From a virus, in IMG/VR virus record IMGVR_UViG_3300043395_002432, positions 1-64,000 of that record: a stretch of 64,000 bases of DNA, one strand, 5' to 3'. Each line of letters starts with the position of its first letter. Positions within the stretch are counted from its first letter, which is position 1. The notes under the pieces were generated by a model that ran no database searches, was not told the DNA's origin, and worked only from the letters and a program-made list of their open reading frames with translations. This document shows, piece after piece, positions 632 through 63,263 of the stretch. The translations under genes and the position numbers were made by a program.

Positions 632-1080
632 GTACTCTCCGTTACCCCTTGAACGTAGCCACGGCTCTCGCTGAACTTCGCTAAGAACGTGTCAAGACGG
701 ATGGGGCCGAGGAGGGGCAGGAAGGGGCGGATCAGAGCCACGGGATTGTCGGCGTTGGAGGCCCGACTCGACCTCACGAAGTAGAAACACTTATATCTCC
801 CATGCTCGCCCCCTGCGCCCCTCTCCCCCCACCGCTCTGCAAGGACTGCTCAGGTCGCTCCCCTCCCCAGCGCCGGAGCATGCACCCGGCGCTTCTCGAC
901 GAATTCGACTTCGCACCAAGAACGACGTCGACGAGCGACGTCGCGGGGTCTGTTGGTGCGCGAGCCAGTACGCCCCAGGCGGGCTGCGCTTGGTGGGTTC
1001 TTGGCATGGGGTGGGGATATAAGGATTTCTTCTTCGTGAGGTCGCTCACGGCGGTCTACGCCGACAATTGCCACGAACGA

Positions 1081-1113
1081 GAAAGGGGCCAGGGACTGCT
1101 CCCTGACCCCTTC
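1081..1113 (-). terminator. probable intrinsic terminator after RNA ligase
   Basis: minus strand GAAGGGGTCAGGGA-GCAG-TCCCTGGCCCCTTTC hairpin followed by pyrimidines. Confidence 0.55.
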
Positions 1114-1131
1114 GCCTCAGACCTCAGGGGC

Positions 1132-2271
1132 TTAGCGGAGACCGCCCCCCATGAACCACGCCTTCGCCGCTGCTGTGACGTCGCCTGCGACCTGCTTCCA
1201 AGTCAGGCCACCCGCCTCCATCTCCAGCTTCGACTCCTTCTCGACGTCGGCCATGACCGCCTTGAGGAAGGGGCCGATCCCCTTCATGGAACGATCTCCG
1301 CCGACCTGCTGGAGCATCTGCTCGCAGCGGGCTGGGGTGACGAACATGGTGGCGAACTCGCTCACGCCAGCGGGCTTCTCGACCAGGGTCTTGACGGCAG
1401 CCGACGACGCCTTGACGCGGTGCTGCTCACCCTTCGCCTTGAAGCTCAGGCGGCGGAACACGGTCGTCCGCATGGCGACGAAGACCTCGTCGGCGTCCTC
1501 GTCGATCTTGAACGTCCGATCCTCCATCTCTGCGATCCCGGTCGGGTAGAAGACCAGACCCTCGCCCGCACCAAGTGCCGTCCCGTCGCTGATCGACGCG
1601 ACGTAGGGATCGACCTTCTCGATCTTCTCGATCTCGGCGTTGATCTTCTCGATCTCGGCGTTGGTCGAGGCGACGTTGACGAGGTTCAGGCGCACGCTCA
1701 GGTTCCCGTCCGCGAACTCGTACCAGGGGAGGACGCGCATGGGGAAGGGGTTCTCACCCTGCGGCTGGTCGGCGTTCGCCTTGATCCAGTCGAGGAACTT
1801 CTGGATCTGATCCGGCTCCACCAAGAGCAGGTCGTGAGGCTCGTCGTCCTCGTCGGGCTTGATCACCCGAATGGCGAAGACGTAGAACGCCGGGGGGAGC
1901 TTGGTGAGCGAGACGCCTCGCTGAATGCTGCCCCCCGCCCACTCGCCATAGATCACGACGACCGTCCCCTCCGGGTTGGTGATGCCGAGCGACAGCCCTG
2001 AAGACGCGAACGCTCGTGCGAAGCCGTAGTTATCGGCTTCGACGCTGACGTCGTTGCTCCGCGACTGCAGAGAGACGCTCCCGTCCGGGTTCAGCCGGAT
2101 CGCGGCATTGGTGCCGTGGAGCTTGATCTTGGCCTTGAAGGCCACCTCCTTGTCGAGCGGGAGGCCGATCCGCCGCACGTTGCCGAGGGTATGCTCCAGC
2201 CCCTCGATGCTGGGCCACGGGACGTGTCCCTTGGGCATGGTCTGAAGACGCGACTCGTCTGGGATGAACAT
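1132..2271 (-). CDS. RNA ligase, Rnl2 family
   Basis: nucleotidyltransferase motifs KLHGTN (I), YGEWAG (III), FYVFAI (IIIa), GEGLVF (IV), FKAK (V). Confidence 0.85.
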   Translation of the reverse strand: MFIPDESRLQTMPKGHVPWPSIEGLEHTLGNVRRIGLPLDKEVAFKAKIKLHGTNAAIRLNPDGSVSLQSRSNDVSVEADNYGFARAFASSGLSLGITNPEGTVVVIYGEWAGGSIQRGVSLTKLPPAFYVFAIRVIKPDEDDEPHDLLLVEPDQIQKFLDWIKANADQPQGENPFPMRVLPWYEFADGNLSVRLNLVNVASTNAEIEKINAEIEKIEKVDPYVASISDGTALGAGEGLVFYPTGIAEMEDRTFKIDEDADEVFVAMRTTVFRRLSFKAKGEQHRVKASSAAVKTLVEKPAGVSEFATMFVTPARCEQMLQQVGGDRSMKGIGPFLKAVMADVEKESKLEMEAGGLTWKQVAGDVTAAAKAWFMGGGLR

Positions 2272-2312
2272 GAAGGCTCCTGTGGAACGAATTCGATCTC
2301 GTTCGCCGGAGC

Positions 2313-2372
2313 AAGATAAGCCCTGGGAGGATCGAGTGAACGCCCCCAGGGTCGGCTTGACACGTTCTTGTC
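2313..2372 (-). promoter_or_regulatory. phage promoter: tandem-repeat site + 37 nt + TATCTT
   Basis: CTTGACACGTTCTTGTC at 2356; -10-like hexamer at 2313-2318; same geometry at several other genes. Confidence 0.6.
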
Positions 2373-3075: not shown

Positions 3076-3998
3076 GCCACCACCTCAGGCTCCACCAAGA
3101 TCCACTCCTTCAGGGTGGGGAAGTACAGCGCCTCCCCCTCAAGGAACCTCGCCCCTTCAAGGATGGACTCTACCATCGCCTCCTCCAGATCAGCGGCTTG
3201 CGCGGCGTCAGGAGCGGGAGCGGCTGCGCTGGCTGCGAGCAGATCGAGGAAGTCCTCACCAAAGGAAAGCAGCCCTTCGGGAAGCTCAACGAGCCGAGCC
3301 TGAAGATCGACCCGATACGGAACCTGAACGTACTTGGTGCGATCCAGGCTCTCGTTCGTGTCCCGATAGTCCTTCTTGTGCTTCGGGCTACGGCGCCTGC
3401 CTGTCTCGTAGTCACGATGCTGCGTGTTCGCGTGCTTCCCTGCACCAGCCCCACCCCGCATCGTGTGCGCTGCCGCAATGGGGTTGAACGACGTGTGCTT
3501 CGGCTTCTTCTTGCCCTCGGTCATGTCCTCTTCCTCCCTTGCTCTCTGCTTAGCCACGAATACGCTTTCGATCACGGTGACTGTCCCACGCACCAAGATC
3601 TCTTCCGCGTGACTCATGAGGAGCCACTGATTCGGCTCCCAATACTGCTTGGCCCACTCTTCGGCGTCGTCCGGGCGAAACATGGCCTCCGTCCACCAAC
3701 CGCCGTCCGTTGTGAAGATCGTCCCTGTGACCTTCACCCGGTAGACATGCCGGTCGCCGTTGTGCCTACAGAAGCCCCTTCCGTTCAAAGGGCAGACGAA
3801 GACACAATCCAGCCTACTTGGTGCATCGGGAACGATCTCCTTCCGCACGCGCTCGAAGATCTCCTCGAGATCGGAGCGACGCGGACGAGCCTTCGGCACC
3901 TTGAACCCGATCTCGACCGGGTTGTCGGTGGCCCAATAGAACACCTCGCCCTTTACCTGCCGAAGCCCCGGTCGAGATTTCCTGTCAATCAGCTTCAT
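3072..3998 (-). CDS. DUF2441-like / ADP-ribosyltransferase-fold protein with basic C-terminal extension
   Basis: EEIFERVRKEIVPDAPSRLDCVFV and AKQYW...EEILVRG resemble the ART-like DUF2441 family. Confidence 0.5.
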   Translation of the reverse strand: MKLIDRKSRPGLRQVKGEVFYWATDNPVEIGFKVPKARPRRSDLEEIFERVRKEIVPDAPSRLDCVFVCPLNGRGFCRHNGDRHVYRVKVTGTIFTTDGGWWTEAMFRPDDAEEWAKQYWEPNQWLLMSHAEEILVRGTVTVIESVFVAKQRAREEEDMTEGKKKPKHTSFNPIAAAHTMRGGAGAGKHANTQHRDYETGRRRSPKHKKDYRDTNESLDRTKYVQVPYRVDLQARLVELPEGLLSFGEDFLDLLAASAAAPAPDAAQAADLEEAMVESILEGARFLEGEALYFPTLKEWILVEPEVVA

Positions 3999-4047
3999 TT
4001 CGCCCTCTCTTCAGAGGTAGCGCGAAACGAATTCGAATGCACCCTCC

Positions 4048-4563
4048 TTAGAGGAGATCGAAGCGAACGCCGGTCTCGCGGAGCCAGATCTGAAGCTCCT
4101 CCTCCGAGGAGAACCAGCCGTCCTCCCGCAAGATCTGAACGATGGCTGGCCAATTCAGAGGGGCAGCCCCCTTCATCTTGGCATGGGCTGCCTTGACCTT
4201 CTCGGGCCTCAGGAAATTCGACCCTTGGACGAGGAGGCTCTTGTGAAAGAAGACTCCATGCGCTTGGGCGATCTTGGCCCAGGTATCGATCCGACGCATG
4301 AACTTCAAAGCAGAGTACATCCCGAAGCCTGGAAGCACGGGAAGCGCACCAAGAAGGGATCGGAGCCAAGGGCGCTCGGTCTGGCAGTAGATCCGCAAGA
4401 CCCAGAAGAGGCATACGTCCGACCACTCCTCTCGAATCCCCCGAAGGTCGCCCGCCCGGATCGCCTCCTTCAGCTCCTCTACCTCGAGACCGAGGAGCCG
4501 GTCGCTGACCCTGTTGAAGGTCTTGTCAAAGAGATACGCAAACGTGATCAAAGCTTCCTCCAC
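4048..4563 (-). CDS. MazG-like nucleotide pyrophosphohydrolase
   Basis: EVEELKEA...IREEWSDV acidic helix motif; GTG start. Confidence 0.55.
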   Translation of the reverse strand: MEEALITFAYLFDKTFNRVSDRLLGLEVEELKEAIRAGDLRGIREEWSDVCLFWVLRIYCQTERPWLRSLLGALPVLPGFGMYSALKFMRRIDTWAKIAQAHGVFFHKSLLVQGSNFLRPEKVKAAHAKMKGAAPLNWPAIVQILREDGWFSSEEELQIWLRETGVRFDLL

Positions 4564-4633
4564 GAAGAAGGGGACGCCCCGCAGGACGTCCCCTCAGTAT
4601 CCACCGCCGACCGAGCGGATCGTCAAGATCCGG

Positions 4634-5887
4634 CTAAGGCTGGCGAAGCTGCAAAACCGTGCGCGCAATGTCCCGCAGGAGTGAATTGAGGCGCACGTCA
4701 TTCGCCACCCGCTCAAGCTCCTCCGAGCTGAGATTGTTCACCAAATCGGTCGCCCGAGGAAGAACCAGCGCAATGGCGTCGACGATCAGATCCCAAGCCT
4801 CCTTGAGCGGGGGCGGGGTCAAAGGACGGGGGACGGGCAGCCGGGGCTGGAAGGGCGAACGAATCTCGATCTTCGGCTCGGGCTTCTCCTCGGGCTTCTC
4901 CTTGGACTCGGACTCGGGCCTGACCTCGGACTCGGCCTCGGGCTTGACCTCGGGCTTGCTCTCGGGCTTGCTCTCGGGCTTCGGCTCCGCCTTCGGAAGG
5001 ATCGCCATTGGTGCCGCGACTATGCCCCTCGTCGCCCGATCCGGGGGAGGCGGGAACCACGCACGACGCGGAGGCTCGACCTTCACCGACTTCTCCTCGA
5101 CCTTAGGTGGGATCTCAGCCGGGATCGACGTGTCCAACATGGCTTCGATGAACGTCAGCCCTTTTGCGACGACCTGCCTGATCTGCCGCGTGATCGCGTC
5201 CGGGTAGGTCGCCCCCTCCACCAACAGCGCGACAGCAGGGATCACCTCCAAGACCTTCCACAGCTCAGCCCGCACCCTCGTCCGATCTGACAGCCCATGC
5301 GTCGCCATTGGTGCGAGGAGCGCGCAGATCTCGTCAAGGAGGCGAATTCGAACGAGGCTGGCAACGAATTCGATTGCGTCGTCGAGCGCGGCTGCCGTGC
5401 GGAAGGGAGGCAGGAACGCCTCATCCTCCTCGTCCCGATTCCGCATGGGGAACGACACCTCGAGCGGAGAAGGCAGGCGAACGTACTCGGCCATTGCGGC
5501 TTCGTCCGCGAACAGCTTGGGGTGGGAGGCGGGAAAGAGCGTCCTGCGCCGTCCTGCGTGAGACCCGAGCTTCACGCACCAACGCCCGTCGACGTAGCTG
5601 TACCCGTGGACGTCGAAGACCGCCTTGATCCCGAACAGGGGATGGCCCGCCTCAATGTCCGCGAGGTACTCCAAGAAGGTGCGATACCGGTACGCGACCG
5701 AATACCGAATGAAGCGATCCCACGTCATGCGCCGATCAGACGGCACCAAGCCCGTCTTCATCGCTTGGTGCGCCCGATACAGCATCGCCGTGGTCAGCTT
5801 GGCAGGAACGCCCTCGATCCGAGTCAGGCGCTCTCGAACCTCCTCCTTGTCGAAGAGGGGCGGAAGGGGGGGGAGAATTTCAGCCAT
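4634..5887 (-). CDS. hypothetical protein with (KPE[S/V/E])n low-complexity linker
   Basis: ORF from MAEILPP with GGAGG RBS; 12-nt tandem repeats at ~4870-4990. Confidence 0.7.
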   Translation of the reverse strand: MAEILPPLPPLFDKEEVRERLTRIEGVPAKLTTAMLYRAHQAMKTGLVPSDRRMTWDRFIRYSVAYRYRTFLEYLADIEAGHPLFGIKAVFDVHGYSYVDGRWCVKLGSHAGRRRTLFPASHPKLFADEAAMAEYVRLPSPLEVSFPMRNRDEEDEAFLPPFRTAAALDDAIEFVASLVRIRLLDEICALLAPMATHGLSDRTRVRAELWKVLEVIPAVALLVEGATYPDAITRQIRQVVAKGLTFIEAMLDTSIPAEIPPKVEEKSVKVEPPRRAWFPPPPDRATRGIVAAPMAILPKAEPKPESKPESKPEVKPEAESEVRPESESKEKPEEKPEPKIEIRSPFQPRLPVPRPLTPPPLKEAWDLIVDAIALVLPRATDLVNNLSSEELERVANDVRLNSLLRDIARTVLQLRQP

Positions 5888-6461
5888 TGCGGCCTCCTTG
5901 TGAGTCGAGAAATGCCTTAATGCGTTCCCCACCTCTGGGGTTCTTGAGATTGAAGATCGGGATCTGGTGCGCGCAAGCGATCCGAAGCGCCTGCCCCGTG
6001 CCGCCCGTCTCTTTGGTGATCTGCTCAAGGGTCTCAGCGCCATCTGCCGTCCAGCAGATCACCATTCGCACCGGGTCGGGAGCTGACACCGGAAACGGCC
6101 CCAGGATCTGATGGCTGTTCCTGGCCTGTAAAAGCGCCACCGTGCCGCGAAGGCTCGCACCTACGGGATGATGCTGAAGCATGACTTGGTGCGCCTCCTG
6201 TGAGGGTTCTGCGCGCTTGACAGCCCCGTCGTGACGACCGTTGAAGCCTGGGAAGGGAAGGTATAGCTCCAGATACCGCGAGACCTCTGCTGCACCAACT
6301 TCCCCGCGCACCCCGATCTCGAACGCCGAGTCCGCACCGCGAGCCGCACCAGAACGACAGAGCCACTTCAACTGCACCAAGCGGGCAGCCATCTTCGCCA
6401 TGAGGTGCAACGCCTCCTCAGGCGTCTCCCGCGATCCGATCCCAGCGTACTTCATCACCAC
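5880..6461 (-). CDS. DprA-like / SLOG-superfamily protein
   Basis: YAGIGSRETP, SGAARGADSAFE and GGTGQALRIA motifs. Confidence 0.75.
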   Translation of the reverse strand: MVMKYAGIGSRETPEEALHLMAKMAARLVQLKWLCRSGAARGADSAFEIGVRGEVGAAEVSRYLELYLPFPGFNGRHDGAVKRAEPSQEAHQVMLQHHPVGASLRGTVALLQARNSHQILGPFPVSAPDPVRMVICWTADGAETLEQITKETGGTGQALRIACAHQIPIFNLKNPRGGERIKAFLDSQGGRNG

Positions 6462-7610: not shown

Positions 7611-7696
7611 GCGTTCTCCTCAGAGGAGAGGTAAGCGTCGGGGAGAAAAAGCACAAGAGGGGAGACGAATTCGACTTCGTCTCCCCCCCGCCGAGA

Positions 7697-8680
7697 TCAG
7701 AAGATCATGGCCGGGTTCTTCGCGTAGAATCCCGAGGCGAAGCCCTTGTTCAGCTCGCAGGCTGCGCTGAAGGCGACCCCCTGGAGCGCCTTCTCGATCT
7801 GGCCCTTGCACCAGTCGAGCTTGCCAGCCCGACCGATCCCGATCTCCTGCCCCTTGATCCGGGGCTTGACGATCACCTTCGGCGGATCGCTGCTGTCGAA
7901 GTCGACCCGGTCGACGCTGATCTTGGACTTGGGCGTCGACAGCCGGATCTCGACGTCGAAGTCCACGTCGAGCTTGGTTCCCCCGACGTTGCCCTCGGCC
8001 TTGACCTGCGCCTTCACGCCCCCCGGCTGCCCCTGAGCGCGGGAGATCGCCCAGGTGAAGCCCCCGTTCCGGGCAGCGACGACCCGAGCCTCCTGCCGGT
8101 TCAGGGCGTTGGCGAGCTGCGCCCCAGCCCCACGCGGCCCCGCCGAGCTGGTGAAGTCGCCCACGATCCCCTGCGCCTCCTTCGTGAGGTAGGCGCGGTA
8201 CGCGGCGACATTCGTCGCCTTGAGGATCGGGCTGTGGTCGAACTCGAGGGTGCGCGGAGCCACCCCCTCCTTCTCCCCGATCTTGCCGATGCTACGCAGG
8301 AAGCCCACCAAGGTCGCCTCCCACTCCTGCGGCCCGGTCTTCTCGGGGGCGAACGCGCCCGCCGTGTAGACCGCGTTGGAGTTCGGGACGCGCCGCAGGA
8401 CGCCGTCAGCGTCGACCCGAGCCGGGTACACGCCCAGCCTGTGCCATCCCGAGTCGTCAGGCTCCGACGCGCTGCCTGAGTCCCCGAAGGCGTAGCTCAT
8501 GACGAGGTCAGTGAAGACCTCGGTGACCTTGCCCCCGACGAGGAGGGCGATGCTGAAGCTCATGCCCCAGCAATTGCCCGATTCGTCCCTGACGACCTCC
8601 ACGATGGTGGAGGTGGCCTGACGCGACGAATTCGACTTCGCCTCGACCTTCGTCTCGACCTTCGTGCTGACCTTCGGCAT
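7697..8680 (-). CDS. hypothetical protein
   Basis: 327-aa ORF, strong GC3 bias, AGGAG RBS, own promoter (8728-8787). Confidence 0.75.
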   Translation of the reverse strand: MPKVSTKVETKVEAKSNSSRQATSTIVEVVRDESGNCWGMSFSIALLVGGKVTEVFTDLVMSYAFGDSGSASEPDDSGWHRLGVYPARVDADGVLRRVPNSNAVYTAGAFAPEKTGPQEWEATLVGFLRSIGKIGEKEGVAPRTLEFDHSPILKATNVAAYRAYLTKEAQGIVGDFTSSAGPRGAGAQLANALNRQEARVVAARNGGFTWAISRAQGQPGGVKAQVKAEGNVGGTKLDVDFDVEIRLSTPKSKISVDRVDFDSSDPPKVIVKPRIKGQEIGIGRAGKLDWCKGQIEKALQGVAFSAACELNKGFASGFYAKNPAMIF

Positions 8681-10386: not shown

Positions 10387-10468
10387 GTGTGGGCAAAATT
10401 TGGCCGAGGCTTGCCATGCGGCAGGAAGAAGACGATTCTTGATAACCTCAGTCCAGCGGCTCACACCA

Positions 10469-10540
10469 TGACGACAGTAGGATTCGAACCTACGACCAAG
10501 AGCTTGTAATGCTCCCACTCTCCCACTGAGCTATGTCGCC
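10469..10540 (-). tRNA. tRNA-Val(TAC)
   Basis: cloverleaf; anticodon arm GGAGC-ATTACAA-GCTCT; GGTTCGAATCC. Confidence 0.8.
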
Positions 10541-10544
10541 AGAT

Positions 10545-10618
10545 TGACACTGACCGGGATCGAACCGGTGACCTCAAGTTTAGGAAACTTGCGCTCTATC
10601 CTGCTGAGCTACAGTGTC
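10545..10618 (-). tRNA. tRNA-Arg(CCT)
   Basis: CAAGT-TTCCTAA-ACTTG; canonical arms. Confidence 0.9.
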
Positions 10619-10674
10619 GACGAATTCGAATGCGCTTCTCTCTCTCGTCTCTCTCTCGTCTCTCTCGCTTCTCA

Positions 10675-10739
10675 TGGCTCCGGTGAGATTTGCACTCACA
10701 TTCGGGCGTCCCCTGCCTTCCTTGTTAGACCACAGAGCC
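10675..10739 (-). ncRNA. tRNA-like RNA, anticodon arm reduced to GGG-GACG-CCC
   Basis: acceptor GGCTCTG/CGGAGCC, D-arm, T-arm GTGAG-TGCAAAT-CTCAC; no 7-nt anticodon loop. Confidence 0.7.
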
Positions 10740-10741
10740 AA

Positions 10742-10826
10742 TGAGACGGGCAGGAGTCGAACCTGCGTCCTTCAGCGATTGAATCCGAAGATTCTCACTG
10801 GCGCTCTACCACTGAGCTACCGCCCC
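10742..10826 (-). ncRNA. tRNA-like RNA, extended anticodon arm capped by C(UUCG)G
   Basis: canonical D/T arms; CAGTGA-GAATC-TTCG-GATTC-AA-TCGCTG. Confidence 0.8.
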
Positions 10827-10829
10827 ATA

Positions 10830-10961
10830 TGTCAGGGAGGGATCTCCCTCACCCCAGAAGAGCGTTTCCGCATGCCAACACTGTAGCCTCGACCAGATCT
10901 GCCTCCAGTCTATCTACCCCCGTGGGTATCCCATTTGGGTCTTGAACGGGCTTTCCTGACA
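10830..10961 (-). ncRNA. unidentified ~130-nt structured RNA in tRNA array
   Basis: ends pair (TGTCAGG/CCTGACA); several internal hairpins including GCG-GAAA-CGC; abuts tRNA-like units on both sides. Confidence 0.45.
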
Positions 10962-10962
10962 A

Positions 10963-11035
10963 TGCCAGGGGGGTGACTTGCACACTCATCTCCGAACCTT
11001 GTGGCTCGGCGTCCTTCTTTTTGGACGACCCCGGC
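10963..11035 (-). ncRNA. tRNA-like RNA, 7-bp anticodon stem with ACAA loop
   Basis: GCCGGGG/CCCTGGC acceptor; CCGAGCC-ACAA-GGTTCGG; T-loop TGCAAGT. Confidence 0.65.
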
Positions 11036-11040
11036 TTGAA

Positions 11041-11127: not shown

Positions 11128-11160
11128 GCTTGCTGTGGGGGCGGTTAGCAGCCGCTCCTC

Positions 11161-11700: not shown

Positions 11701-11711
11701 CTTCTCTCCAA

Positions 11712-11803: not shown

Positions 11804-11807
11804 GTAA

Positions 11808-52273: not shown

Positions 52274-52290
52274 GGCATGGCTCCTTGAGG

Positions 52291-53184: not shown

Positions 53185-53212
53185 GCGCCCTCCGAATTCG
53201 ACTTCGTCGTCT

Positions 53213-54463
53213 CTATCCCGGCTTGGTGGGCAAGGTGTTCTGAGGTGCCGGTGCCTTCACCGGAGAAACCAGAATCGAATCGTAGTAGCGAGTGACCTCG
53301 AATTCCGACGTGTAGCCTGACTCCGAGACCTGATGCGTCACCTTCGTCACCGTGTACGCCCCGTCGAAGTACCGAGAGCAGCCCTTGATCTGCACCAACT
53401 CCCCTGGGAGCAGATTCGGGATGCCTATCGTAGAGCAGCTCGCCTGGAAGGACTCCGTGACCTTCGGGATCGAATTCTTGGCAAGCTGCTCCAGCGTCGA
53501 ATTCGGTACACCAAAGCCCGTCCCAGGAGGAGATACCTGCGTGGTCGCCCCCGTCTCGTCAGGCTGCATCGAGATCGAGATCTTGTTGCCCGTCTCAGGG
53601 TGGATCTGATCCTTTGGTGTGTCAGGTGCAGCGACAGCCTCTCCGTCCGCCAACGTCGACAGGGTCTCTCCTGACTTCGCCTCATACGACTGCACATTTC
53701 CGTCCATGTCCAGCCAAGCGCTGAGTGTACGATCCGACCCAGGCAAGATCATGACCTGCTGCGAGGTGCTGAAAGAGATCAGAGGATACTCGTTCAAGGC
53801 ACGATTGGGGACGCCCCACTTCACGAAGCTCCGAGAGGGCGGAAGGCTGAGCGAGTAAAGCTGCGGATAGACCGCCAGGACATTCCTGCCGTTGTCTTGA
53901 GAGTAGAAGTGAAAAGCCCGTTTGTACTTGTTGAGTAGATTGACAAGGCATGTCCAAAAACTCTCGCCATTCTGGTTCAACTCCAGAATCTCGACCTCTT
54001 CCGCACCAAGACTCGGCTTCCAGTCCACCTCCCAGCCCATGCGCTGACTCATCTCGAGGACGATGGATTGGAGCGTCCCCTTGTAGCTCTTGCTGGACGA
54101 ACGCCCCATTGCGAGCGCGCCTGCACCAAGACCGGTGAGGGAGATCTCGACCGTGTCCCCAAGCGTTACGTCGGGCTTCTGGATCAGACCTGCGTACCAT
54201 GCGGAGTAGAATCCCGACTCGGGGTATCCAAACTGCACCAAGAGGACGTTGTCCATCGCAAACAAGGTGCTTTCGAGGTACTCGATCCCGAGGTCGTAAG
54301 GCATTGCCAGCGAGATCTGGATCGTGTTGTTCTGCCCCTGCACGACCTCGACGCTGATCGACTGGAGGGCCACACCGCTGTTCGGCGTCCAGAGGTCATA
54401 GGTGCGATTGTCGATCCGGCTGTAGATCCGGGCCGACATGAAGATGCCGGTATGCGTGGGCAT
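53213..54463 (-). CDS. baseplate hub (gpD / gp27-like)
   Basis: VQFGY, NQNGES.W..L, IGIPNLLPG..VQIKG...FDGAY.VTKVTH...GYTSEF. Confidence 0.85.
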   Translation of the reverse strand: MPTHTGIFMSARIYSRIDNRTYDLWTPNSGVALQSISVEVVQGQNNTIQISLAMPYDLGIEYLESTLFAMDNVLLVQFGYPESGFYSAWYAGLIQKPDVTLGDTVEISLTGLGAGALAMGRSSSKSYKGTLQSIVLEMSQRMGWEVDWKPSLGAEEVEILELNQNGESFWTCLVNLLNKYKRAFHFYSQDNGRNVLAVYPQLYSLSLPPSRSFVKWGVPNRALNEYPLISFSTSQQVMILPGSDRTLSAWLDMDGNVQSYEAKSGETLSTLADGEAVAAPDTPKDQIHPETGNKISISMQPDETGATTQVSPPGTGFGVPNSTLEQLAKNSIPKVTESFQASCSTIGIPNLLPGELVQIKGCSRYFDGAYTVTKVTHQVSESGYTSEFEVTRYYDSILVSPVKAPAPQNTLPTKPG

Positions 54464-54472
54464 GGACGCTCC

Positions 54473-54994
54473 TCAGGAAACGAATTCGCCTGCACGGTGG
54501 ACGCTCCCCCCGCAGTCCAGGCGAAGACTGGCAGCCTGGATCGCTCGCTGCACGACCTGCATGCGGCGGGAGCCGTCCTCCTGCTCCCAGAGTCGCTTGG
54601 GCTGCGCCAAGAGGTAGCCCAGCGAGAGCTGTCCCCCGGTGCCAATGGCCCAGAAGGGCAGCGACACCTCGATCCACTGACGCCCCTCCAGCCGAAAGAT
54701 GCCTTCGCGGCGGGAGACGAGGACTTCCTCCCTCCCCGCGATCTCGAGGAGGAGGTCACGCAGCTTCTCAGGCGTCTCTACACGATCCCACGTCTGCCCC
54801 TTGACGGCTGCGAGGAAGGTCTCCTCTCGGGCCGCTTCCCTGGGATCGGTAGCACCAACGCAGAGCGTCGTCCCCTGATCCGTCAGCGCCACAATCCTCC
54901 GCAAGGGGTAGGTCAGCCCGCTCGGGCCAACCTGCTGAGAGTCGCTCGCCATTCCAAAACCATGCTTGGTGCGATACGCAACGACTACGGACAT
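54473..54994 (-). CDS. Ntn-hydrolase (HslV/proteasome-beta-like) protein
   Basis: MSVVVAY......MASDSQ; FWAIGTGGQLSLGYL. Confidence 0.65.
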   Translation of the reverse strand: MSVVVAYRTKHGFGMASDSQQVGPSGLTYPLRRIVALTDQGTTLCVGATDPREAAREETFLAAVKGQTWDRVETPEKLRDLLLEIAGREEVLVSRREGIFRLEGRQWIEVSLPFWAIGTGGQLSLGYLLAQPKRLWEQEDGSRRMQVVQRAIQAASLRLDCGGSVHRAGEFVS

Positions 54995-55043
54995 TCAACC
55001 CTCCAGGGGAGGAGCTTAGAGGGAACGAAGGAACGGAGCCAGA

Positions 55044-55634
55044 TCAGTTCACAAGCCCGCTGGCCACCTGATCAGAGCGAGTCTCTACCAAGCTCGCCTC
55101 CACCAAGAGCCACCCCATTGCAGAGGTCAGGCTGTTGATCCCAAGATCGTTCCGAACCGAGGGCAGATCTCCGTACTCACGCATGCAGTGCGGGAGGTAC
55201 TTCCGGCTGATCACCTCGATCCTCGTTTTGTCCGACGCCTCAGTCAGAACCGAGAGAACCGCAAGGACACCACCAAGATCCGGCTCCCTGAGCTTCAGCG
55301 AGAGGTACTTCAGCATCGTGTCCACACCAAGAGGGAAGCTCAGACGATACTCGGGGAACATTCCCTCCTCGTCCACCCAGGCGTGGGGAGCGTTCATGGG
55401 ACGCTGAGCAGAGTACTCGCTGGTGTGCCGAACGAGGACACGCCCCTTCACCCCCTGGCTCGAGTCCCCCTTGATCCGATGCTCCAGCCGCCCAAGATCC
55501 ACCTCCGTGAGCCGATACTCACACACCATGTCGGAGGAAGCGAAGAAGCTCTGCTTCGAGAGCCATTGGCGGAACGAGTCCCGCGTCATGGCGTAGAGCA
55601 GGTTGGCGTCGAGCGGGAACGTGAAGAGCTGCAT
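55044..55634 (-). CDS. hypothetical protein
   Basis: GGAGG RBS before MQLFT. Confidence 0.6.
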   Translation of the reverse strand: MQLFTFPLDANLLYAMTRDSFRQWLSKQSFFASSDMVCEYRLTEVDLGRLEHRIKGDSSQGVKGRVLVRHTSEYSAQRPMNAPHAWVDEEGMFPEYRLSFPLGVDTMLKYLSLKLREPDLGGVLAVLSVLTEASDKTRIEVISRKYLPHCMREYGDLPSVRNDLGINSLTSAMGWLLVEASLVETRSDQVASGLVN

Positions 55635-55944: not shown

Positions 55945-58900
55945 TCACCTCCTCGGGGTCGCGGCGGCTGGCCCCTGCACGATGCCAGGGCGAGCAGAGG
56001 GGATCGCCTGAAGCTGCCCGCCTCGGATCGCGGAGAGAATGTCGCGCAAGACCGCCCGCGTCTGATCCCCCTCAGACTTGAGCTGAGCTATGATCCCCTG
56101 GGCATTCCCCTTAGCGAGGTTCGCGTCATAGGTCGCCTGAGCTGAAGCGTCCGACGAAGTCGAATTCGTTCCGGTGGTCTTGATCCCGAGAATGCTGCCA
56201 AGCGACAGGCTGCGGAACACGTCCGCAATCCCCTCAATCGTCGCCGTGACCTTCCCGAAGACGCCCACGAAGACGTCGAGGATCGACTCGAAGACCCCGT
56301 AGAGCGCGTCCGTCACGCTCCCAAAGTGATCCTGAACCAGCTCAGCGCCCTTCGAGAGGACAGCACCAATGGACTCCGCAATCCACTCGAAAGCAGACAC
56401 GACGGCAGCAGGGAAGCCTGTCACCAAGTCGTAGAAGACCTGAAAGCTCGTCTTCGCGTTGTTGACGAAGAGGCGGAACAGCGCAAGGAGCGGGGACTCC
56501 GCCGAGAAGAGCTTGTTGAACACCTCAATGAGCTTGTCCTTCAGCGACGTGACCGACTGAAAGATGGTGGCGAGAGAGATGAGGATCGTCTCCTTCGTTT
56601 GGGGCCAAGCTGCTACGAGCTTGTTGTAAAACGACGAGAAGGCGGTGACGGCTGCATCGATGTAAGAAGCGACGGTGGGCCAAATCTCCACCAAGTAGTC
56701 CCCGATCTCTTTGAGAGGATCGAAGGTGGCTGAGAGATTGCCCTGCGCTGTTGGTGCGAACACCCCACTCATCATGGCGTTGATGCTCATGAGCCAGCCG
56801 TAGAAGGGGTCGATGAGCGACGTCGCCTCGCTGATCGAGGAAGTGATCGAGTCCCACCAAGAGGTGCCTTGGGCTTCCTCGTCCCCACCCCAGAGCATCT
56901 TCAGCATGGCGAAGAGGGGAGAGACGAGCGGAAGGACGGTGCCGAGGCTGTCCTTGATGTTTCGAACGTAGAGGTCGAAATACTCCCCAGCCGTCTCCCC
57001 GAACGACTTGGCGAGGACGGAAGCCTCAGAGAGCCAATCCGTCAAGCTGGTGAGGTTCGGGATCGACGCCAGAACGAAGTCGAATGCGTCGCTCACCGCA
57101 CCAAAGAAGGTCTCGTCAAGGGATGCCCCAAGAGACTTCAGCCAGTCGTACACCTCACCAAAGGTCTGCTTGAAGGATGCCGCCTGCTCGAGCCACGCAT
57201 TCGATTCCTCCTCCCCGTAGAAGATCCTCGAGATCCAAGCGACGATCTCCACCCCCTTGTCGAAGAGGAACTCCGTGAGGTTCTCAATGGCGTAGGTCAG
57301 GACGTCCCGAATGCCAGAGATCACGGAGAACGTCATGGTGAACTGGCGCGTGATCCCATGCACCAAAGTCTCCATGAGGAACGACCCGAGCATGAGCCAA
57401 TTGTCCCCATTGGTGAAGGCGCTCCAGAGAGAGTCCTTCAGCCACGGAACCACGACCGAGAGAAGGCTCTTGGTGAGAGCGGCCCAAGGCACCTCGTCGA
57501 TCACACGCTCCACAATGTCCCGAACACGGAGGGCGAGATCCTTCGCCGTCCCGAGGAGGCCCATGAGAGCCGAGCCAAGCGGAGAGCTGGCGGACTCGCC
57601 GTTCAAGTAGGCACTCAGGGACGCCACGGCCAACGAGATCGAATTCGTGATCCGATCCGCGATCAGCTTGGGGTCGACCTCCATTGCCTTCTTGAGCTGC
57701 TCCGTGAGGAAGCCCTGAAGGAATTGGACACCTTCGAGAAGCGTGTCGCGGATCTTAGTGACAATGTTCTGCGCGATAGGGCCGAATGCCCCACTCATCG
57801 CCTCGTCCACCCCCCACATAGCAGCAGTCAGCGCACCAACTGCAACAACGACAGCACCGATCCCAATTCCCCACGGGCCAAGAGCGGCCAGCATGGGCGT
57901 CAGCATCCCGAACGGCCCACCCGCAAGAAGGAGGTTCTTCAGGTAGGTGAAGGGGACGAGCAAGTCGCTGACGTTGATCCCCACGGACGCAAGGAACTCG
58001 CTCAGGGGAGAGAACGCCTCCGAAGCTGCACCAATGGCAGAGATCGCCACGCTGAGCTTGCCCGTGTCACCGATGAAGGGCTGAAGGGCTGCAGCAAGCC
58101 CTCCTGACTGCATGAGCGAAGCCGCACGCGTGAGCTTCGAGAGCGTGTCGTTCACCCCAGCGATCTGCTCCTGTGAAGCACCAAGTGACTGAAGCTGCTT
58201 GGTGAAGAGATCCAGCCCCTTCCCAGCCGCCAGGGTCTTGACCGCTGCTCCGACCTCCGCATACGCCGCACGCTGGCTCTTCACGAATTCGCGTGCATCT
58301 GGGTACGCAATGCTCTTGAACGTATGCTCGAAATTCTCCTTGATTCGCGCAAGCTGATCGTCAAGCGTCAAGCCCGTGCGATAGCCCTCCTTCCCAAGCT
58401 CTCTGAGGCTCTTGATCCCGCCCTCAATGGGCTTCTGCATCGCCTCCAGGGCCGCGACCGCGTTGTCGCCCGCCTCGAAGAAGTACTCGAAGCCGGGGCC
58501 AAGCTCTTGCGTTACCGTGTCGGACAATTGTTGAAGGAGGACGTCGTTTCGCGGCCCACCTTTCTTGAGATCCGAGTAGAGCTTCGTCATGTTCTTTGCG
58601 AAAGTCAGCGGATCGTCTGTTCCCTTCTTGAGCGCGTCCATCGCCTCAGAGAAGCCTCCAGGGAGGCCAACAGCGAGCTTCTGCAAGAGTGGGCCGAACT
58701 CGCCATCAATGCCCGCCATCATCTTGGGCAGGACGTTCGCATTCTCGGAGAGATTCTTGAAGAGGTCTATGGCGTGGGTGAGGTTCTCCTGCTGCGTCCC
58801 ACCAATGGCCGTGGTCATGGCCGCACCAAGTCGGGTCGCGGACAGGATCATCTTCTGGACGGCTTCCGGCCCCTCCGCCTTCAGCGTCGTGGCGAATGCC

Positions 58901-59661
58901 TCGTCCATCGTCGTCATCATCCCAACCAAGCCACCAAAGGCTTCCGTGCCAATGCCGAGCGCGGTGACCTGCTTCGTGAAGGTGTCGAGGAAGCCGACCG
59001 CCCCCTCCTTGGTGAAGCCATACGAACGAGTGAGGTTCGTGAAGACGTTGCCAAGATCCTCACCTGAGAGACCCGTGACCTCGAGAACCCTTCCGAGATC
59101 CTGCAAGCCGTTCAGTCCGAGATCCTCTGGTGTGATCCCGACCTTCCGCAAGGCAAGGAAGTTCTTTCCAAGCTCGCCTGCGTCCATGTTGAGCGAGCGC
59201 GCCGCACTGGAGATCTGCCCCTCGGCGCGGCGCAGCTCCTTCCCGAAGAGGCCCGCATTCGCAGCCATTCCTGCGAAGCCCTTATCGAATTGGATCGCAG
59301 CCTGTGTGATGCTGGAGACGAATTGCCCCCGGCTCTCACTGAGCTTGTTGATCAGGTCTTGCGCCTTGTCGAACGGAGCGCGCACCAAGTCCGTGGGGTC
59401 GAGCGCGTCGAAGAGCTTGGCGAGCTTAGTGACCGCCGTCTCACCGTCGTTCGCCAGACGAGTCGCGTCGTCAGAAGCTCCCCTGAGGGCGCTGCTGGTG
59501 TTTTTGATCGCCCTGGTGCTTCCCTTCGAAGCAGAAGCAACGCCACTGAGCATGCTCTGGATCGAAGCGTTCAGATCGCTGATCGACGTGTTCAGCGCAG
59601 CGACGTTCTTGTTGAACGCCTTCGTGTTCGCTGAGAAGTTATAGCCGAGTCCGATCCGCAT
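55945..59661 (-). CDS. tape measure protein
   Basis: 1238 aa, helical Ala/Leu/Gly-rich, hydrophobic central segment, periodic aromatics; synteny. Confidence 0.88.
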   Translation of the reverse strand: MRIGLGYNFSANTKAFNKNVAALNTSISDLNASIQSMLSGVASASKGSTRAIKNTSSALRGASDDATRLANDGETAVTKLAKLFDALDPTDLVRAPFDKAQDLINKLSESRGQFVSSITQAAIQFDKGFAGMAANAGLFGKELRRAEGQISSAARSLNMDAGELGKNFLALRKVGITPEDLGLNGLQDLGRVLEVTGLSGEDLGNVFTNLTRSYGFTKEGAVGFLDTFTKQVTALGIGTEAFGGLVGMMTTMDEAFATTLKAEGPEAVQKMILSATRLGAAMTTAIGGTQQENLTHAIDLFKNLSENANVLPKMMAGIDGEFGPLLQKLAVGLPGGFSEAMDALKKGTDDPLTFAKNMTKLYSDLKKGGPRNDVLLQQLSDTVTQELGPGFEYFFEAGDNAVAALEAMQKPIEGGIKSLRELGKEGYRTGLTLDDQLARIKENFEHTFKSIAYPDAREFVKSQRAAYAEVGAAVKTLAAGKGLDLFTKQLQSLGASQEQIAGVNDTLSKLTRAASLMQSGGLAAALQPFIGDTGKLSVAISAIGAASEAFSPLSEFLASVGINVSDLLVPFTYLKNLLLAGGPFGMLTPMLAALGPWGIGIGAVVVAVGALTAAMWGVDEAMSGAFGPIAQNIVTKIRDTLLEGVQFLQGFLTEQLKKAMEVDPKLIADRITNSISLAVASLSAYLNGESASSPLGSALMGLLGTAKDLALRVRDIVERVIDEVPWAALTKSLLSVVVPWLKDSLWSAFTNGDNWLMLGSFLMETLVHGITRQFTMTFSVISGIRDVLTYAIENLTEFLFDKGVEIVAWISRIFYGEEESNAWLEQAASFKQTFGEVYDWLKSLGASLDETFFGAVSDAFDFVLASIPNLTSLTDWLSEASVLAKSFGETAGEYFDLYVRNIKDSLGTVLPLVSPLFAMLKMLWGGDEEAQGTSWWDSITSSISEATSLIDPFYGWLMSINAMMSGVFAPTAQGNLSATFDPLKEIGDYLVEIWPTVASYIDAAVTAFSSFYNKLVAAWPQTKETILISLATIFQSVTSLKDKLIEVFNKLFSAESPLLALFRLFVNNAKTSFQVFYDLVTGFPAAVVSAFEWIAESIGAVLSKGAELVQDHFGSVTDALYGVFESILDVFVGVFGKVTATIEGIADVFRSLSLGSILGIKTTGTNSTSSDASAQATYDANLAKGNAQGIIAQLKSEGDQTRAVLRDILSAIRGGQLQAIPSARPGIVQGPAAATPRR

Positions 59662-59700
59662 ACGAGCCTATAGCCAACGAATTCGAATGCACCAAGCCAG

Positions 59701-60865: not shown

Positions 60866-61659
60866 GTGAGGACGTTGCCCACCAAGGGGATCTCTCCGTT
60901 CTCCCCGCAGGACGCGCAAGTGTACTTGCCCGAGGCGTCGAATTCGCCCCCGACCCCCTTCGCTGCCTTACGAATGGCAGCGATCTGGCGCACACTCAGC
61001 GCCCGGATGCGCTTCAGGATCTCTCCGATCTCCTCCTTCTTCTCGCCACGCACCACGGGGGTGCCTTGTAGCTCAGCGAGGTTGTGGGCGAGCGAGATCG
61101 ACGCATGGTGGTCGGGGAAGAAGGAATTGGCAGTTACCTCCCAGATCGCGTCCCGCACCACGGGAAGGCGGAGGCGAGCAAGCTGTGGTGCCTGGGGCGT
61201 GCTGACACACCAAGCAGGGTCTTCGTCAGCCTTCAGCGGGATCACCTCCAGCTCGGAGATGTCGAAGGAGTAGCGCCCATCGTTCTTGCACTTCGGACAA
61301 GTGATCGTGAAGTCCAGAACGTCCCCATGCGAAATGCGCGTCGCACCAAGAACGAGGTAGCTGAAGTCCTCCATCGGGAGGTTGAGGATCGCGTTCACCG
61401 AGAACGTCTGCGGAGGCTCCTCTCCGACGTCGTCGTCACAGCCAACGATCAGGCGACTGAGGACGAGCGCGATCCGCCGATACATCTCCTCGGTGGGGAT
61501 CTTCCCGTCCTTAGGCCGAATGGCGAGAATGTCCTGCTCCTCACCCGTCATCTCCCGCAGGCGGAACTTGCGAAGTCGAACATTGGTGCCGTCCTTCTTC
61601 GTCCAAAGGTAGCCGCAAGGCAGCTCGACCATGTCGTGTGAACTTAGCGTTGGTTCCAT
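60826..61659 (-). CDS. tail assembly chaperone (G), Zn-binding
   Basis: VELPCG, LREMTGEEQDIL, CPKC, CASCG, ends LTFF; between tube and tape measure. Confidence 0.75.
   Translation of the reverse strand: MEPTLSSHDMVELPCGYLWTKKDGTNVRLRKFRLREMTGEEQDILAIRPKDGKIPTEEMYRRIALVLSRLIVGCDDDVGEEPPQTFSVNAILNLPMEDFSYLVLGATRISHGDVLDFTITCPKCKNDGRYSFDISELEVIPLKADEDPAWCVSTPQAPQLARLRLPVVRDAIWEVTANSFFPDHHASISLAHNLAELQGTPVVRGEKKEEIGEILKRIRALSVRQIAAIRKAAKGVGGEFDASGKYTCASCGENGEIPLVGNVLTFFMTGVSVVKTP
60859..60865 (-). other. -1 ribosomal frameshift slippery heptamer T TTT TTT
   Basis: ACT TTT TTT ATG in a GC-rich gene; -1 frame open to 60689. Confidence 0.75.
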
Positions 61660-61741
61660 GAATGCTCCCTCCTCAGATCCTAACAAGAAGGGGGGACAGC
61701 ACCAAGCCATCCCCCCCCCTCGACGAATTCGAATTCGCTGC

Positions 61742-62644
61742 TTAGTGCGGAGTCAAGATCACCGTGTAGGTGCCAGCACCGGGCTGGTGCTTCCAGCCGT
61801 AAGCCGTGTTCGCCGTGGAGTTCTTCTGGATCAGCGACTTGTACGCCGCCGAGATCTTCTTGCTGACCTCCTCCTTCGAAGCTCCGGTCACCACCACGTT
61901 GTTCCCCTCGACCTTCGCACCAAGGATCGCCGCAAGCTCCTTGCTGAAGAACTGACGCGCCTCCTCTACAGGCTCCTCCACGCTCTCCTGCACCTTAGAA
62001 GCCTTCGCACGAAGGATCTTCGCAGAGGCAAGCGCGTCCTGCGCGAGGGCGTTGAGACGATCACGCGCCTCCTCGAACGGGTCGACGATGTTGGTGATGG
62101 CAAGGAGCAGACGCTTCTTGGTGAAGGCCGCGTCAATGACGGGCTTCTTCTTGTCCACGGCAGCAGCCAGAGCGGCGTCGCTGGACACCGACCTCGGCTT
62201 CCCTGGCGCATCTTGGAGCATGAGCGCCTCAGGGCTGAGCGCGTAGATCGGCTTCATGGCCGAAGCGAAGCTCCCCTGCGTCTTCGTCTTGATCTCCCTG
62301 GCTGCCGCCTCCAGCCCCTCCGCGAAGGCGATCAGTTGCTTGCGGCTCAGATCCTCCAGCGGGATTCCCATGAAGTCAGTCGGAAGCCCAGACCCCTTGT
62401 TCTTCGCAACCACCGCCTCAGTGTCCTTGTGCCGCTCGTTCTCGCGCTTGGCAGCCGCCTCCGGGGCGTCAGGATCGAAGGAACCGGGCGGATCGTCAGC
62501 CTGCTTGAACGCCTCCTCGACCTCCTCCTCCTCGTCCTCCTCGCCACCAACGTCGTCCAGATCCACCTCCTCGCTCTCAGGATCTTCCCCGCATGTGCCG
62601 TCGCACATAGCGCATTCTGCCAGATTCAGTACGCGATTCGACAT
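61742..62644 (-). CDS. hypothetical protein with acidic N-terminus
   Basis: AGGAGG RBS; poly-Glu stretch. Confidence 0.7.
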   Translation of the reverse strand: MSNRVLNLAECAMCDGTCGEDPESEEVDLDDVGGEEDEEEEVEEAFKQADDPPGSFDPDAPEAAAKRENERHKDTEAVVAKNKGSGLPTDFMGIPLEDLSRKQLIAFAEGLEAAAREIKTKTQGSFASAMKPIYALSPEALMLQDAPGKPRSVSSDAALAAAVDKKKPVIDAAFTKKRLLLAITNIVDPFEEARDRLNALAQDALASAKILRAKASKVQESVEEPVEEARQFFSKELAAILGAKVEGNNVVVTGASKEEVSKKISAAYKSLIQKNSTANTAYGWKHQPGAGTYTVILTPH

Positions 62645-62689
62645 GACCGTATCCTCCTGAAGGAGCATAGACAGGAATGGGGCTTTTCG

Positions 62690-63238
62690 TCAAACCAACG
62701 CACCAGCAGCCACCTCCGTAAAGGCATGCGGCTGCACCGTGAGCGAAAGCATCGTAATATCCCCAGAAGAAGCGTCCAAATCCCCTGGAGTGTAATTCGT
62801 CGGAATACAGTCCCACAAGATCCATGAACGCGCAGGCAGCTTGGTGACCCCTGGGATCGGAACACCAACAGAGAGGCTCCCGCCCAAGCCAAACGGAAGC
62901 TGGTTCCCAGGCATGAGCTGGATCACCAAGAGGTTCCTGCGAAATTGATCGATCCCATTGATCGAACGCTCGACCCAACGGTAAAAGTCCGTGTCGTCCG
63001 CACGCGCTCCGCGCTCGAACGTCACAGGATTGACTTGCGCCCCCGTGACGTAAGGGGTGGAGTAGTGACTGTTCAGGGGGCGATTCTGCTCGGTCTCGAC
63101 CTCCAGTCCGATCCCCGAGACGCGAGCGCAGCCGATGGAGGGCATCAGCACGAAGAAGGGGGGATTGAGGTTCGGGCTGATATCGCAGACCACGAAGCGA
63201 AATCCACCAATGTGATCCCGCCAACGCTCTCTTGGCAT
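62690..63238 (-). CDS. tail tube protein (T4 gp19-like)
   Basis: RDHIGGFRF, VSGIGLEVE, VTFERG...DFYRW, RRNL, W.L.DCIPT.Y.PGDLDASS. Confidence 0.88.
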   Translation of the reverse strand: MPRERWRDHIGGFRFVVCDISPNLNPPFFVLMPSIGCARVSGIGLEVETEQNRPLNSHYSTPYVTGAQVNPVTFERGARADDTDFYRWVERSINGIDQFRRNLLVIQLMPGNQLPFGLGGSLSVGVPIPGVTKLPARSWILWDCIPTNYTPGDLDASSGDITMLSLTVQPHAFTEVAAGALV

Positions 63239-63263
63239 TCGCTCCTCCGCGAATTCGAATTCG

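Follow-up and report, generated by a model that had tools for sequence, protein, structure and literature searches.

About 70 binding sites (NBS) of the nucleoid occlusion protein Noc are scattered over most of the Bacillus subtilis chromosome and are not clustered. Plasmid RK2, a mobile genome, carries a dozen palindromic operators for KorB, some of which directly precede -35 boxes; KorB is a clamp operated by cytidine triphosphate (CTP) and acts at a distance. In Cluster A mycobacteriophages, many copies of one short site, the stoperator, run through the genome, frequently where one gene borders on the next; this site has no symmetry, depends on its orientation and is where the immunity repressor of these temperate phages binds. 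The consensus sequences of parS (TGTTTCAC-GTGAAACA) and NBS are both 16-bp palindromes with a central C-G, the parS sites being few and located near the origin (PMC7383237). In Cluster O mycobacteriophages a 17-bp dyad repeat, TGTTCGGNNNCCGAACA, is present in 34 copies in about 70 kb; these copies are intergenic, near 5' ends or within coding sequences, show no meaningful orientation and are conserved among relatives, and the authors propose dimeric binding rather than promoter control, the available part of their paper assigning no reader (PMC4351075). The same phages encode a ParB-like protein, a beta clamp, an AAA ATPase, a primase/polymerase and methylases, and the ParB-like protein was considered unlikely to serve genome stability (PMC4351075). 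Here we describe a dyad repeat, CGMAKTCGAMTKCG, which recurs throughout a stretch of 64,000 nucleotides (nt) of viral DNA (positions 1-64,000 of the IMG/VR record IMGVR_UViG_3300043395_002432; the window) and most probably forms a lattice of sites for a dimeric DNA-binding protein.

The window contains 31 exact sites, against a mean of 0.04 and a maximum of 1 in 100 dinucleotide-preserving shuffles. When the scan was extended along the lines suggested in an initial annotation of the sequence, the whole contig of which the window is the first 64 kb (G000; 139,496 bases, rated 68% complete) yielded 69 exact sites, with 0.05 expected under an order-3 Markov model, and 19 further sites with one mismatch, with 1.55 expected; this makes 88 sites at no more than one mismatch. 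Chance or codon bias as the origin of the motif is ruled out by the shuffles and the Markov models, and the initial annotation was right to place the chance expectation far below one. All 30 exact starts that it had picked out by eye are among the 31 found by the scan, the one it overlooked being 57075. Of its near-matches, 4028 and 59678 indeed carry one mismatch and 2288 carries two, while the one put at 48684 really starts at 48683 (one mismatch).

The form of the site tells what kind of molecule may read it. Three half-sites make up the 69 exact sites of the contig (n = 138), namely CGAATTC (80), CGAAGTC (40) and CGCATTC (18), and they pair as independence predicts (mixed AAGTC/AATTC combinations 30 vs 23.2 expected, double-variant ones 4 vs 5.8), in agreement with the symmetric degeneracy claimed earlier. 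Asymmetric variants occur in both orientations (17 vs 13 and 5 vs 5) despite unidirectional transcription. When the sites are aligned along transcription, purines occupy the two positions preceding the core (A or G in 63 of 69), and mostly pyrimidines the two that follow; thus, the element is an 18-bp dyad, RR-CGMAKTCGAMTKCG-YY, the flank pairs of which are complementary in 33 and 31 of 69 cases, no more than base frequencies predict. With its 14-bp core, 18 bp including the flanks, and its centre C|G, the site has the palindrome form of parS and NBS. Coding sites fall in all three reading frames (14, 9 and 4 of 27), and the kinds of peptide and the proteins concerned were correctly recognized before, the peptides being TNSNS in an AAA ATPase (43706), TNSTS and DAFDF in the tape measure protein (56155 and 57075) and SEFDF in a radical SAM protein (42868); RIRIR-type peptides are likewise encoded. 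Of six sites treated as RNA, four have folds no better than those of shuffled sequences (z -0.09 to +1.25), the tolerated half-site changes are uncompensated transversions which give A·G or C·U mismatches in a hairpin rather than wobble pairs, the flanks show no covariation, and no Rfam family lies on any site, Rfam finding tRNAs only. Symmetry, independent half-sites, lack of orientation, poor RNA folds and the use of three frames together point to double-stranded DNA read by a symmetric protein, as the proposed homodimer site implied, and not to an RNA hairpin or a directional signal.

Distribution of the sites is unusually even. They occur about once per 1.5 kb over the whole contig, with no gap shorter than 338 bp, except for one overlapping pair, and none longer than 4.5 kb. 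The coefficient of variation (CV) of the spacing is 0.55, compared with 0.985 for random positions and 0.875 for the same number of randomly drawn gene boundaries (0 of 5000 draws as low in each case), so that the regularity which the initial annotation had proposed to examine holds against both null models.

Conservation was assessed with a metagenome contig, L029, which is 87.5% identical to, and colinear with, positions 36621-55142 of the window. Eleven of the 12 window sites compared are kept there at the aligned position, the exception being the exact site 49903-49916. Invariant motif positions changed in 1 of 110 cases, compared with 59 of 465 for positions up to 20 nt to either side (Fisher p = 4e-5); at the degenerate positions 3 of 44 changed, every change remaining within M/K. 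Codon-3 positions inside the motifs changed in 0 of 30 cases, compared with 21% overall, so that the predicted conservation at synonymous positions is evident. The sites are kept by purifying selection. A strain roughly 4% divergent, present in one of four sequencing runs, differs from G000 by several hundred changes (389), and none of the 40 listed falls in a motif. Some contigs from the four runs have loose ends at motifs, and recombination there was considered and rejected: in the two cases checked by eye, other copies of the motif align via the short repeat, and the remaining loose ends are taken to be the same alignment artefact. Another repeated word was seen in L029, where 8-mers containing CTTGGTG/CACCAAG are the commonest words (CTTGGTGC occurs 32 times in 18.7 kb); by eye, CTTGGTG/CACCAAG words often stand just upstream of the G000 lattice sites as well.

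We consider it about 80% probable that the sites are a selected, evenly spaced lattice for a dimeric, sequence-specific DNA-binding protein.

Placement of the sites relative to genes was determined with crude open reading frame (ORF) calls based on G+C content at third codon positions (GC3), deep coding sequence being defined as that at least 150 nt from the 5' end of an ORF. In the window, 20 of 31 sites are not fully within a called ORF and 24 of 31 are not in deep coding sequence; the earlier estimate that about half are intergenic was thus roughly right. Over the whole contig deep coding sequence, 67% of the genome, holds 28 of 88 sites (p = 3e-11). The purine pair before the core often consists of bases of the TGA or TAA stop codon itself, and where gaps are tightest the stop codon is followed by the site, then by a Shine-Dalgarno sequence and the start codon. 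A directional promoter was rejected for most sites: they are symmetric, and in many cases only a Shine-Dalgarno sequence separates them from a start codon 8-20 nt away.

Individual sites of the window illustrate this placement; all are exact unless said otherwise. Those at 900-913 (CGAATTCGACTTCG), 19191-19204, 19529-19542, 21737-21750 and 24991-25004 lie between called ORFs, 17232-17245 is non-coding, 10621-10634 and 12007-12020 stand between tRNA genes, and 7666-7679 is intergenic and part of a longer palindrome of 34 nt. Stop codons are closely followed by 4028-4041 (one mismatch; 6 nt past a minus-strand stop), 16078-16091 (1 nt past the stop of ORF 16093-16533, minus strand), 39881-39894 (directly past the stop; kept in L029, where the flank has diverged), 45276-45289 (directly past the stop, a TTGACA box following after 2 nt; kept in L029), 48068-48081 (1 nt past the stop, with 13 nt left to the following start; kept in L029) and 63250-63263 (directly past the stop, then GGAGG, the next start being 11 nt on). 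Short gaps accommodate 30599-30612 (44 nt, between ORFs 28903-30588 and 30633-31091), 39272-39285 (30 nt; kept in L029 with an A/C change at a degenerate position), 53193-53206 (28 nt, followed by GGAGG and a start codon; kept in L029) and 61724-61737 (31 nt). The site 22599-22612 is 24 nt upstream of the start of ORF 21993-22574, 23448-23461 is downstream of the beta-clamp gene (23561-24847), and 59678-59691 (one mismatch) precedes the start of the tape measure gene (55945-59661) by 16 nt.

Most other sites lie inside ORFs or at their ends. Near 5' ends are 8627-8640 (40 nt inside the longest ORF, 7697-8680), 21209-21222 (94 nt inside the longest ORF, 19586-21316), 28432-28445 (28 nt inside ORF 27214-28473) and 41559-41572 (one mismatch, 5' end of the ThyX gene, 40576-41577, with an identical variant in L029), and 27217-27230 forms the last codons of ORF 27214-28473 and is followed by a TTGACA box. 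Further one-mismatch sites are 5365-5378 (within ORF 4634-6043), 14919-14932 (within 14679-15149), 18289-18302 (within 17577-18707), 29430-29443 (within 28903-30588) and 34782-34795 (within the baseplate wedge gene, 33111-35204). The one-mismatch site 48683-48696 reads TGCATTCGAATTCG on the minus strand and is the same variant in L029. The radical SAM gene (42764-43396) holds 42868-42881, kept in L029; the AAA ATPase gene (43409-45211) holds 43706-43719, which has one mismatch in L029; ORF 50456-51127 holds 50864-50877 (TKSNS; kept in L029); ORF 51182-52273 holds 51824-51837 (AKSTS; kept in L029, both flanks having diverged); and the tape measure gene holds 56155-56168 and 57075-57088. The named genes were identified by profile matches.

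Sigma-70-like TTGACR boxes were noticed 2-16 nt past lattice sites on the transcribed strand, some of them in a repeated ctgacac-N-ttcTTGACR context; examples are in the window at 45290-45350 and 27160-27215, and in the contig at 100330-100395, 107790-107850, 113690-113745 and 120250-120312. Just 11 of 88 sites have such a box within 40 nt downstream.

G000 is an uncultured, distant T4-like myovirus of fresh water. Its ORFs with coding-like GC3 are almost all on the minus strand, and profile matches include the tape measure protein, baseplate wedge, sheath, T4-type portal and prohead protease, as well as a UvsX-like recombinase, ribonucleotide reductase, DnaN-type beta clamp, ThyX and DnaG-type primase. 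Cultured phages nearest to it by portal protein are just 24-30% identical, and a megablast search of phage records gave no near relative. The labels of the sequencing runs in which it occurs are all freshwater or riverine, and no RNA run is among those listed.

Relatives in IMG/VR with portal proteins 33-45% identical have their own repeats, built on a common framework, G-M-A-NN-CG-NN-T-K-C, with GCAAT-YR-ATTGC among the homologous palindromes of distant relatives. The motifs are GAAAT-YR-ATTTC in L010 (10 sites in 21 kb), CGCAATCGATTGCG in L011, GCGCATGCGCATGCGC in L012, GCAATCAATTGC in L150-L156, GCAACCGATTGC in L161, GCACACGTGTGC in L159/G011 (about one per 1.2 kb) and GGAAATCGATTTCC in L261. 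In L263 the half-sites GCAAT and ATTGC were seen to lie 4 bp apart (GCAATCATGATTGC) rather than 2, which indicates that half-site spacing has changed within the motif family. A larger relative, G006 (232 kb, rated 76% complete), contains 58 exact copies of GCAAT-NN-ATTGC and 90 with at most one mismatch, compared with 0 and 5 for the reversed control; a central CA occurs as often as a central TG (28 and 25), and the CV of spacing is 0.60. Since 48 of these 58 sites are inside ORFs, the gene-boundary bias is a feature of the GC-rich G000 and not of the system. No such repeat was found in the complete relatives G009 and G010, or in T4-like contigs that are further removed, their portals being less than about 30% identical. 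By these comparisons the lattice is older than phage G000.

A strict scan of viral contigs for the 18-mer revealed one other record with multiple copies, G001 (27.1 kb, siphovirus-like, rated 94% complete), which has 11 exact sites with the same half-site variants as G000 and encodes its own terminase, portal and capsid genes. The two phages have only two proteins in common (BLASTP E < 1e-4), a tail-tube-like protein (80% identity) and a zinc-finger primase-polymerase (41%). The tail-tube-like gene (Pfam Phage_tube_2; contig 136918-137847, outside the window, and G001 18371-19321) is 91% identical in DNA and, in G000, lies far from the sheath gene; this likeness suggests a recent exchange between two phages of one host, and G000 and G001 probably share a host. 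Three of the G001 sites (3280, 3489 and 3735) are in a 580-bp non-coding stretch (L027 3252-3835) between divergent genes, just upstream of the primase-polymerase gene, an arrangement that resembles an origin or operator region. A further copy, within the primase-polymerase gene, encodes NEFEF in a poorly conserved linker.

What protein could read the lattice? The initial annotation had drawn an analogy to parS and Noc sites, and a concrete candidate is encoded in the same contig. A protein of 307 amino acids (contig 82326-83249, minus strand, outside the window) matches Pfam ParB_N with E = 9e-12, and its gene adjoins that of an N6/N4 DNA methyltransferase (N6_N4). When a profile of this protein and ten homologues was compared with PDB sequences, Noc was found with 2e-13 over 186 positions, along with ParB of several species and KorB; the Noc alignment spans the N-terminal nucleotide-binding domain and runs into the helix-turn-helix DNA-binding region. 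In an AlphaFold model (predicted local distance difference test score, pLDDT, 67), the top Foldseek matches are again Noc, ParB and KorB, over more than 200 columns. The ParB N-terminal fold and the helix-turn-helix domain, which define membership in this family, are therefore joined in one G000 protein, with Noc, ParB and KorB as its best solved relatives.

Homologues are encoded about 3.6 kb upstream of the portal gene in the lattice-bearing L010, L150, L151, L153-L156, L158-L161 and L186, and are also present in the lattice-bearing L261 and L263; the complete relatives without a lattice, G009 and G010, have no ParB_N gene. In the tree of the ParB-like proteins, the group with a GAAWT-type motif (G000, L010, L261) is one clade with support 97/100, 11 of 12 rows with a GCAAT/GCAAC-type motif fall in a second starred clade to which the GCACA type is sister, and L263 stands apart. 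Motif type follows the ParB-like protein tree. When 27 ParB-homologue loci were scanned, 11 had a family-type top dyad above the maximum of eight Markov simulations. We place the odds that the reader is the phage's own ParB/Noc/KorB-family protein at about even; its binding to the sites is inferred, with indirect support from co-occurrence and tree congruence, to which there are exceptions.

A number of observations weigh against this reading. As many as 22 of 88 sites lie within about 9 nt past the stop codon of the upstream gene, with about 2 expected, and 7 of 88 have a TTGACR box 0-20 nt downstream, with 1.3 expected; with this boundary bias and promoter proximity, an operator-type, KorB-like regulatory role of the sites would also fit. 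The GERRxR motif of CTP-dependent clamps is not present in its usual form: GGEHR or GGHHR stands where Noc aligns AGERR, the last arginine of the box being kept and the first replaced by histidine, which makes a CTP-gated clamp cycle uncertain. Other ParB folds bind ATP or GTP (PMC12704722). Permissive profile searches revealed no ParB-like gene in the lattice-bearing G001 and G006 (the latter 76% complete) and, at permissive thresholds, none in the available stretches of L011, L164 and L012. Of the remaining 16 ParB-homologue loci, 15 have no dyad above simulation and L280 exceeds it by one, with an unrelated dyad; these lattice-free loci belong mostly to more distant homologues, two of them being in the contigs of L165 and L187. 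Finally, all contigs with both the gene and the lattice belong to one syntenic phage lineage, and hence co-occurrence and tree congruence may reflect shared descent only.

If the ParB-like protein is the reader, the behaviour of Noc, ParB and KorB suggests that its dimers would load on every 18-bp site, then remaining in place or spreading over a limited distance. By loading and limited spreading from evenly placed sites, the protein could cover and mark the whole phage genome, and spacing without clusters or long gaps is what whole-chromosome coverage by short-range spreading would select. The purpose might be compaction, sorting from host DNA, shielding or protecting phage DNA, or global control of transcription units in the manner of KorB. 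Were the reader supplied in trans, G001 would be a mimic of the lattice. A far-reaching version of this scheme, which we regard as doubtful, would have a lytic T4-like clade coat its chromosome with a nucleotide-switched ParB/Noc clamp from at least 100 even parS-like sites, as self-marking or chromatin by which phage DNA is sorted or shielded from that of the host, with the small, unrelated siphovirus G001 of the same host having copied the lattice without the protein and being treated as 'self' in co-infection.

The reader might instead be a different dimeric DNA-binding protein of the phage, such as a small helix-turn-helix protein that evolves fast, the ParB-like gene being a mere lineage marker. 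The lattices of G001, G006 and L011, in the available sequence of which the gene was not found, speak for such a protein, and there would be room for it: 117 of 161 compared G000 proteins have no detectable homologue in G006, G009, G010 or G001, and most small proteins of G001 have no Pfam match. No candidate was found, however, and the only proteins common to G000 and G001 are the tail-tube-like one and the primase-polymerase; we regard this alternative as unlikely. G000 proteins present in G006 and absent from G009 and G010 (beta clamp, radical SAM, AAA ATPase, ribonucleotide reductase, D12 methyltransferase and one marginal match) were considered as readers, and none is an obvious site-specific dimer. 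A phage-encoded type II topoisomerase was dismissed as well, PF00521 being found in 0 of 5 records. In the stretch 42039-45211 of the window we noticed a weak DUF1257 protein beside the radical SAM and AAA ATPase genes.

The zinc-finger primase-polymerase (contig 117267-119201, minus strand, outside the window; G001 3836-5593) could read the sites as origin or priming signals on either strand, the site spacing of 1.5-2.6 kb being about that of Okazaki fragments. Apart from the tail-tube-like protein, it is the only one that G000 and G001, otherwise unrelated, have in common; it has a conserved CPxH...CFxC zinc finger and DxD, S..G.Q and R.PG motifs, and is present in three large lattice-bearing records and in neither of the lattice-free G009 and G010; the primase-polymerase of G006 is arranged differently and has a CHC2-type finger, and the three-site cluster of G001 is just upstream of the primase gene. 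Nevertheless, the G006 protein is not an orthologue and matches through the zinc finger only, and no lattice is seen in 19.6 kb of the viral contig L260, which encodes a distant homologue. Known primases recognize about 3 nt, the 42 of 69 sites with unequal half-sites would form weak single-strand hairpins, and G000 also has an ordinary DnaG-type primase. A priming role is thus improbable. The family itself comprises 2 close proteins by word-based search and 73 by exhaustive profile search; P0003 was not found in viral contigs.

A host protein might read the sites, unrelated phages of one host having converged on the motif. Such convergence would account for G001, a different phage with the same motif, the same half-site variants and a tube gene 80% identical to that of G000. 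Relatives with GC contents of 0.43-0.65, presumably from other hosts, nevertheless keep the framework with lineage-specific inner bases, which fits vertical descent with the phage better than host convergence. In a scan of 185,579 species genomes the strict 18-mer gave single matches per stretch in scattered taxa (80 of at least 120 stretches listed), and no motif-rich host genome, which the initial annotation had thought worth seeking, stands out among the matches listed. We consider a host reader quite improbable.

Still less can be said for the sites being targets of a phage DNA methyltransferase or a restriction-related system, kept for methylation-dependent marking. The N6_N4 methyltransferase gene beside the ParB-like one, the D12-class adenine methyltransferase in G000 and G006 but not in G009 and G010, and the two GAATTC and central TCGA within a perfect site would suit it; however, variant half-sites destroy GAATTC, the motifs of relatives lack the central TCGA, and over-representation and even spacing would be left unexplained, which makes it very improbable. 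Nor are the two words avoided outside the motif (GAATTC 60 vs 46 expected, TCGA likewise), and a restriction-site explanation was rejected on this ground. The least probable of all is an intercistronic RNA hairpin for termination, processing or stability, to which the excess of sites past stop codons and the longer stems of two of six folded sites (-14 and -25.7 kcal/mol) would lend themselves, as there is no orientation bias, G006 has most of its sites inside ORFs, and the stable stem with compensatory changes typical of a terminator, a repetitive extragenic palindrome or a processing hairpin was not found.

Other features of the genome were noted in passing. ARAGORN predicts 25 tRNA genes at 10468-17113 of the window (10.4-17.1 kb), two of them with odd anticodon loops, and Rfam makes 22 calls in this cluster, including units that ARAGORN missed (11927-12001, 15160-15255). 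A protein of 871 amino acids (contig 127330-129945, outside the window) with Hen1-like, methyltransferase and Pnkp-ligase-like regions resembles a fused RNA repair system. Over the whole contig, several 6-bp palindromes are nearly absent relative to order-2 expectation (GGATCC 0 vs 79, GAGCTC 0 vs 125, AAGCTT 5 vs 61, GGTACC 2 vs 45, CCATGG 2 vs 40), which looks like restriction-site avoidance; GATC is over-represented (1693 vs 1196 expected).

A 2025 survey describes proteins with a ParB fold as common among phages, where many are joined to N6/N4 methyltransferases, and the available part of that paper treats their roles there as unexplored (PMC12704722). The present case links such proteins with genome-wide dyad repeats for which no reader is named in the available part of the Cluster O report (PMC12704722, PMC4351075). 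Searches of the main text of published papers brought up none that connects a genome-wide repeat of a lytic phage with a ParB-like protein. New here are the conservation test, the homologous motif family in relatives, the occurrence in the unrelated phage G001, and the ParB/Noc-like candidate, together with the records in which it does and does not accompany the lattice. Should the link hold, the parS/ParB principle would be seen in a new use, in which a whole viral chromosome is covered and not a centromere marked, and the lineage-specific sites would be a natural series for studying the evolution of ParB-type specificity. The question is directly testable with one purified protein and one 18-bp oligonucleotide.

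Among the known systems, Noc is the best solved relative of the candidate reader by both sequence profile and fold; G000 differs in being a lytic phage genome, in an about ten-fold higher density of sites, in their even spacing and other sequence, and in GGEHR in place of the GERR of the Noc N-terminal domain. The ParB-parS system shares the protein fold and a dyad with a central C-G, and the L159/G011 motif even has the central CACGTG of parS. On the other hand, about 90 sites are distributed over the whole G000 contig, and the phage is not known as plasmid-maintained. KorB is likewise a ParB-family protein among the profile and fold matches (8qa8, 8qa9), and the sites just upstream of TTGACR boxes recall its operators; most G000 sites are nevertheless away from promoter-like boxes, no KorA-like partner is known, and their number and evenness are far greater. 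Unlike the asymmetric stoperators of one orientation, the G000 site is symmetric and has its variants in both orientations. The Cluster O repeat is the closest described phenomenon: G000 too has more than 30 copies of a dyad, in coding and non-coding DNA and without orientation, and encodes the same unusual set of ParB-like protein, beta clamp, AAA ATPase, primase/polymerase and methylases. The likeness is one of kind only, as the Cluster O sequence, TGTTCGG-N3-CCGAACA, has a spacer architecture unrelated to the spacerless site of G000, the phage type and host phylum differ, and even spacing, so marked in the G000 lattice, is not among the properties reported in the available part of that paper (PMC4351075).

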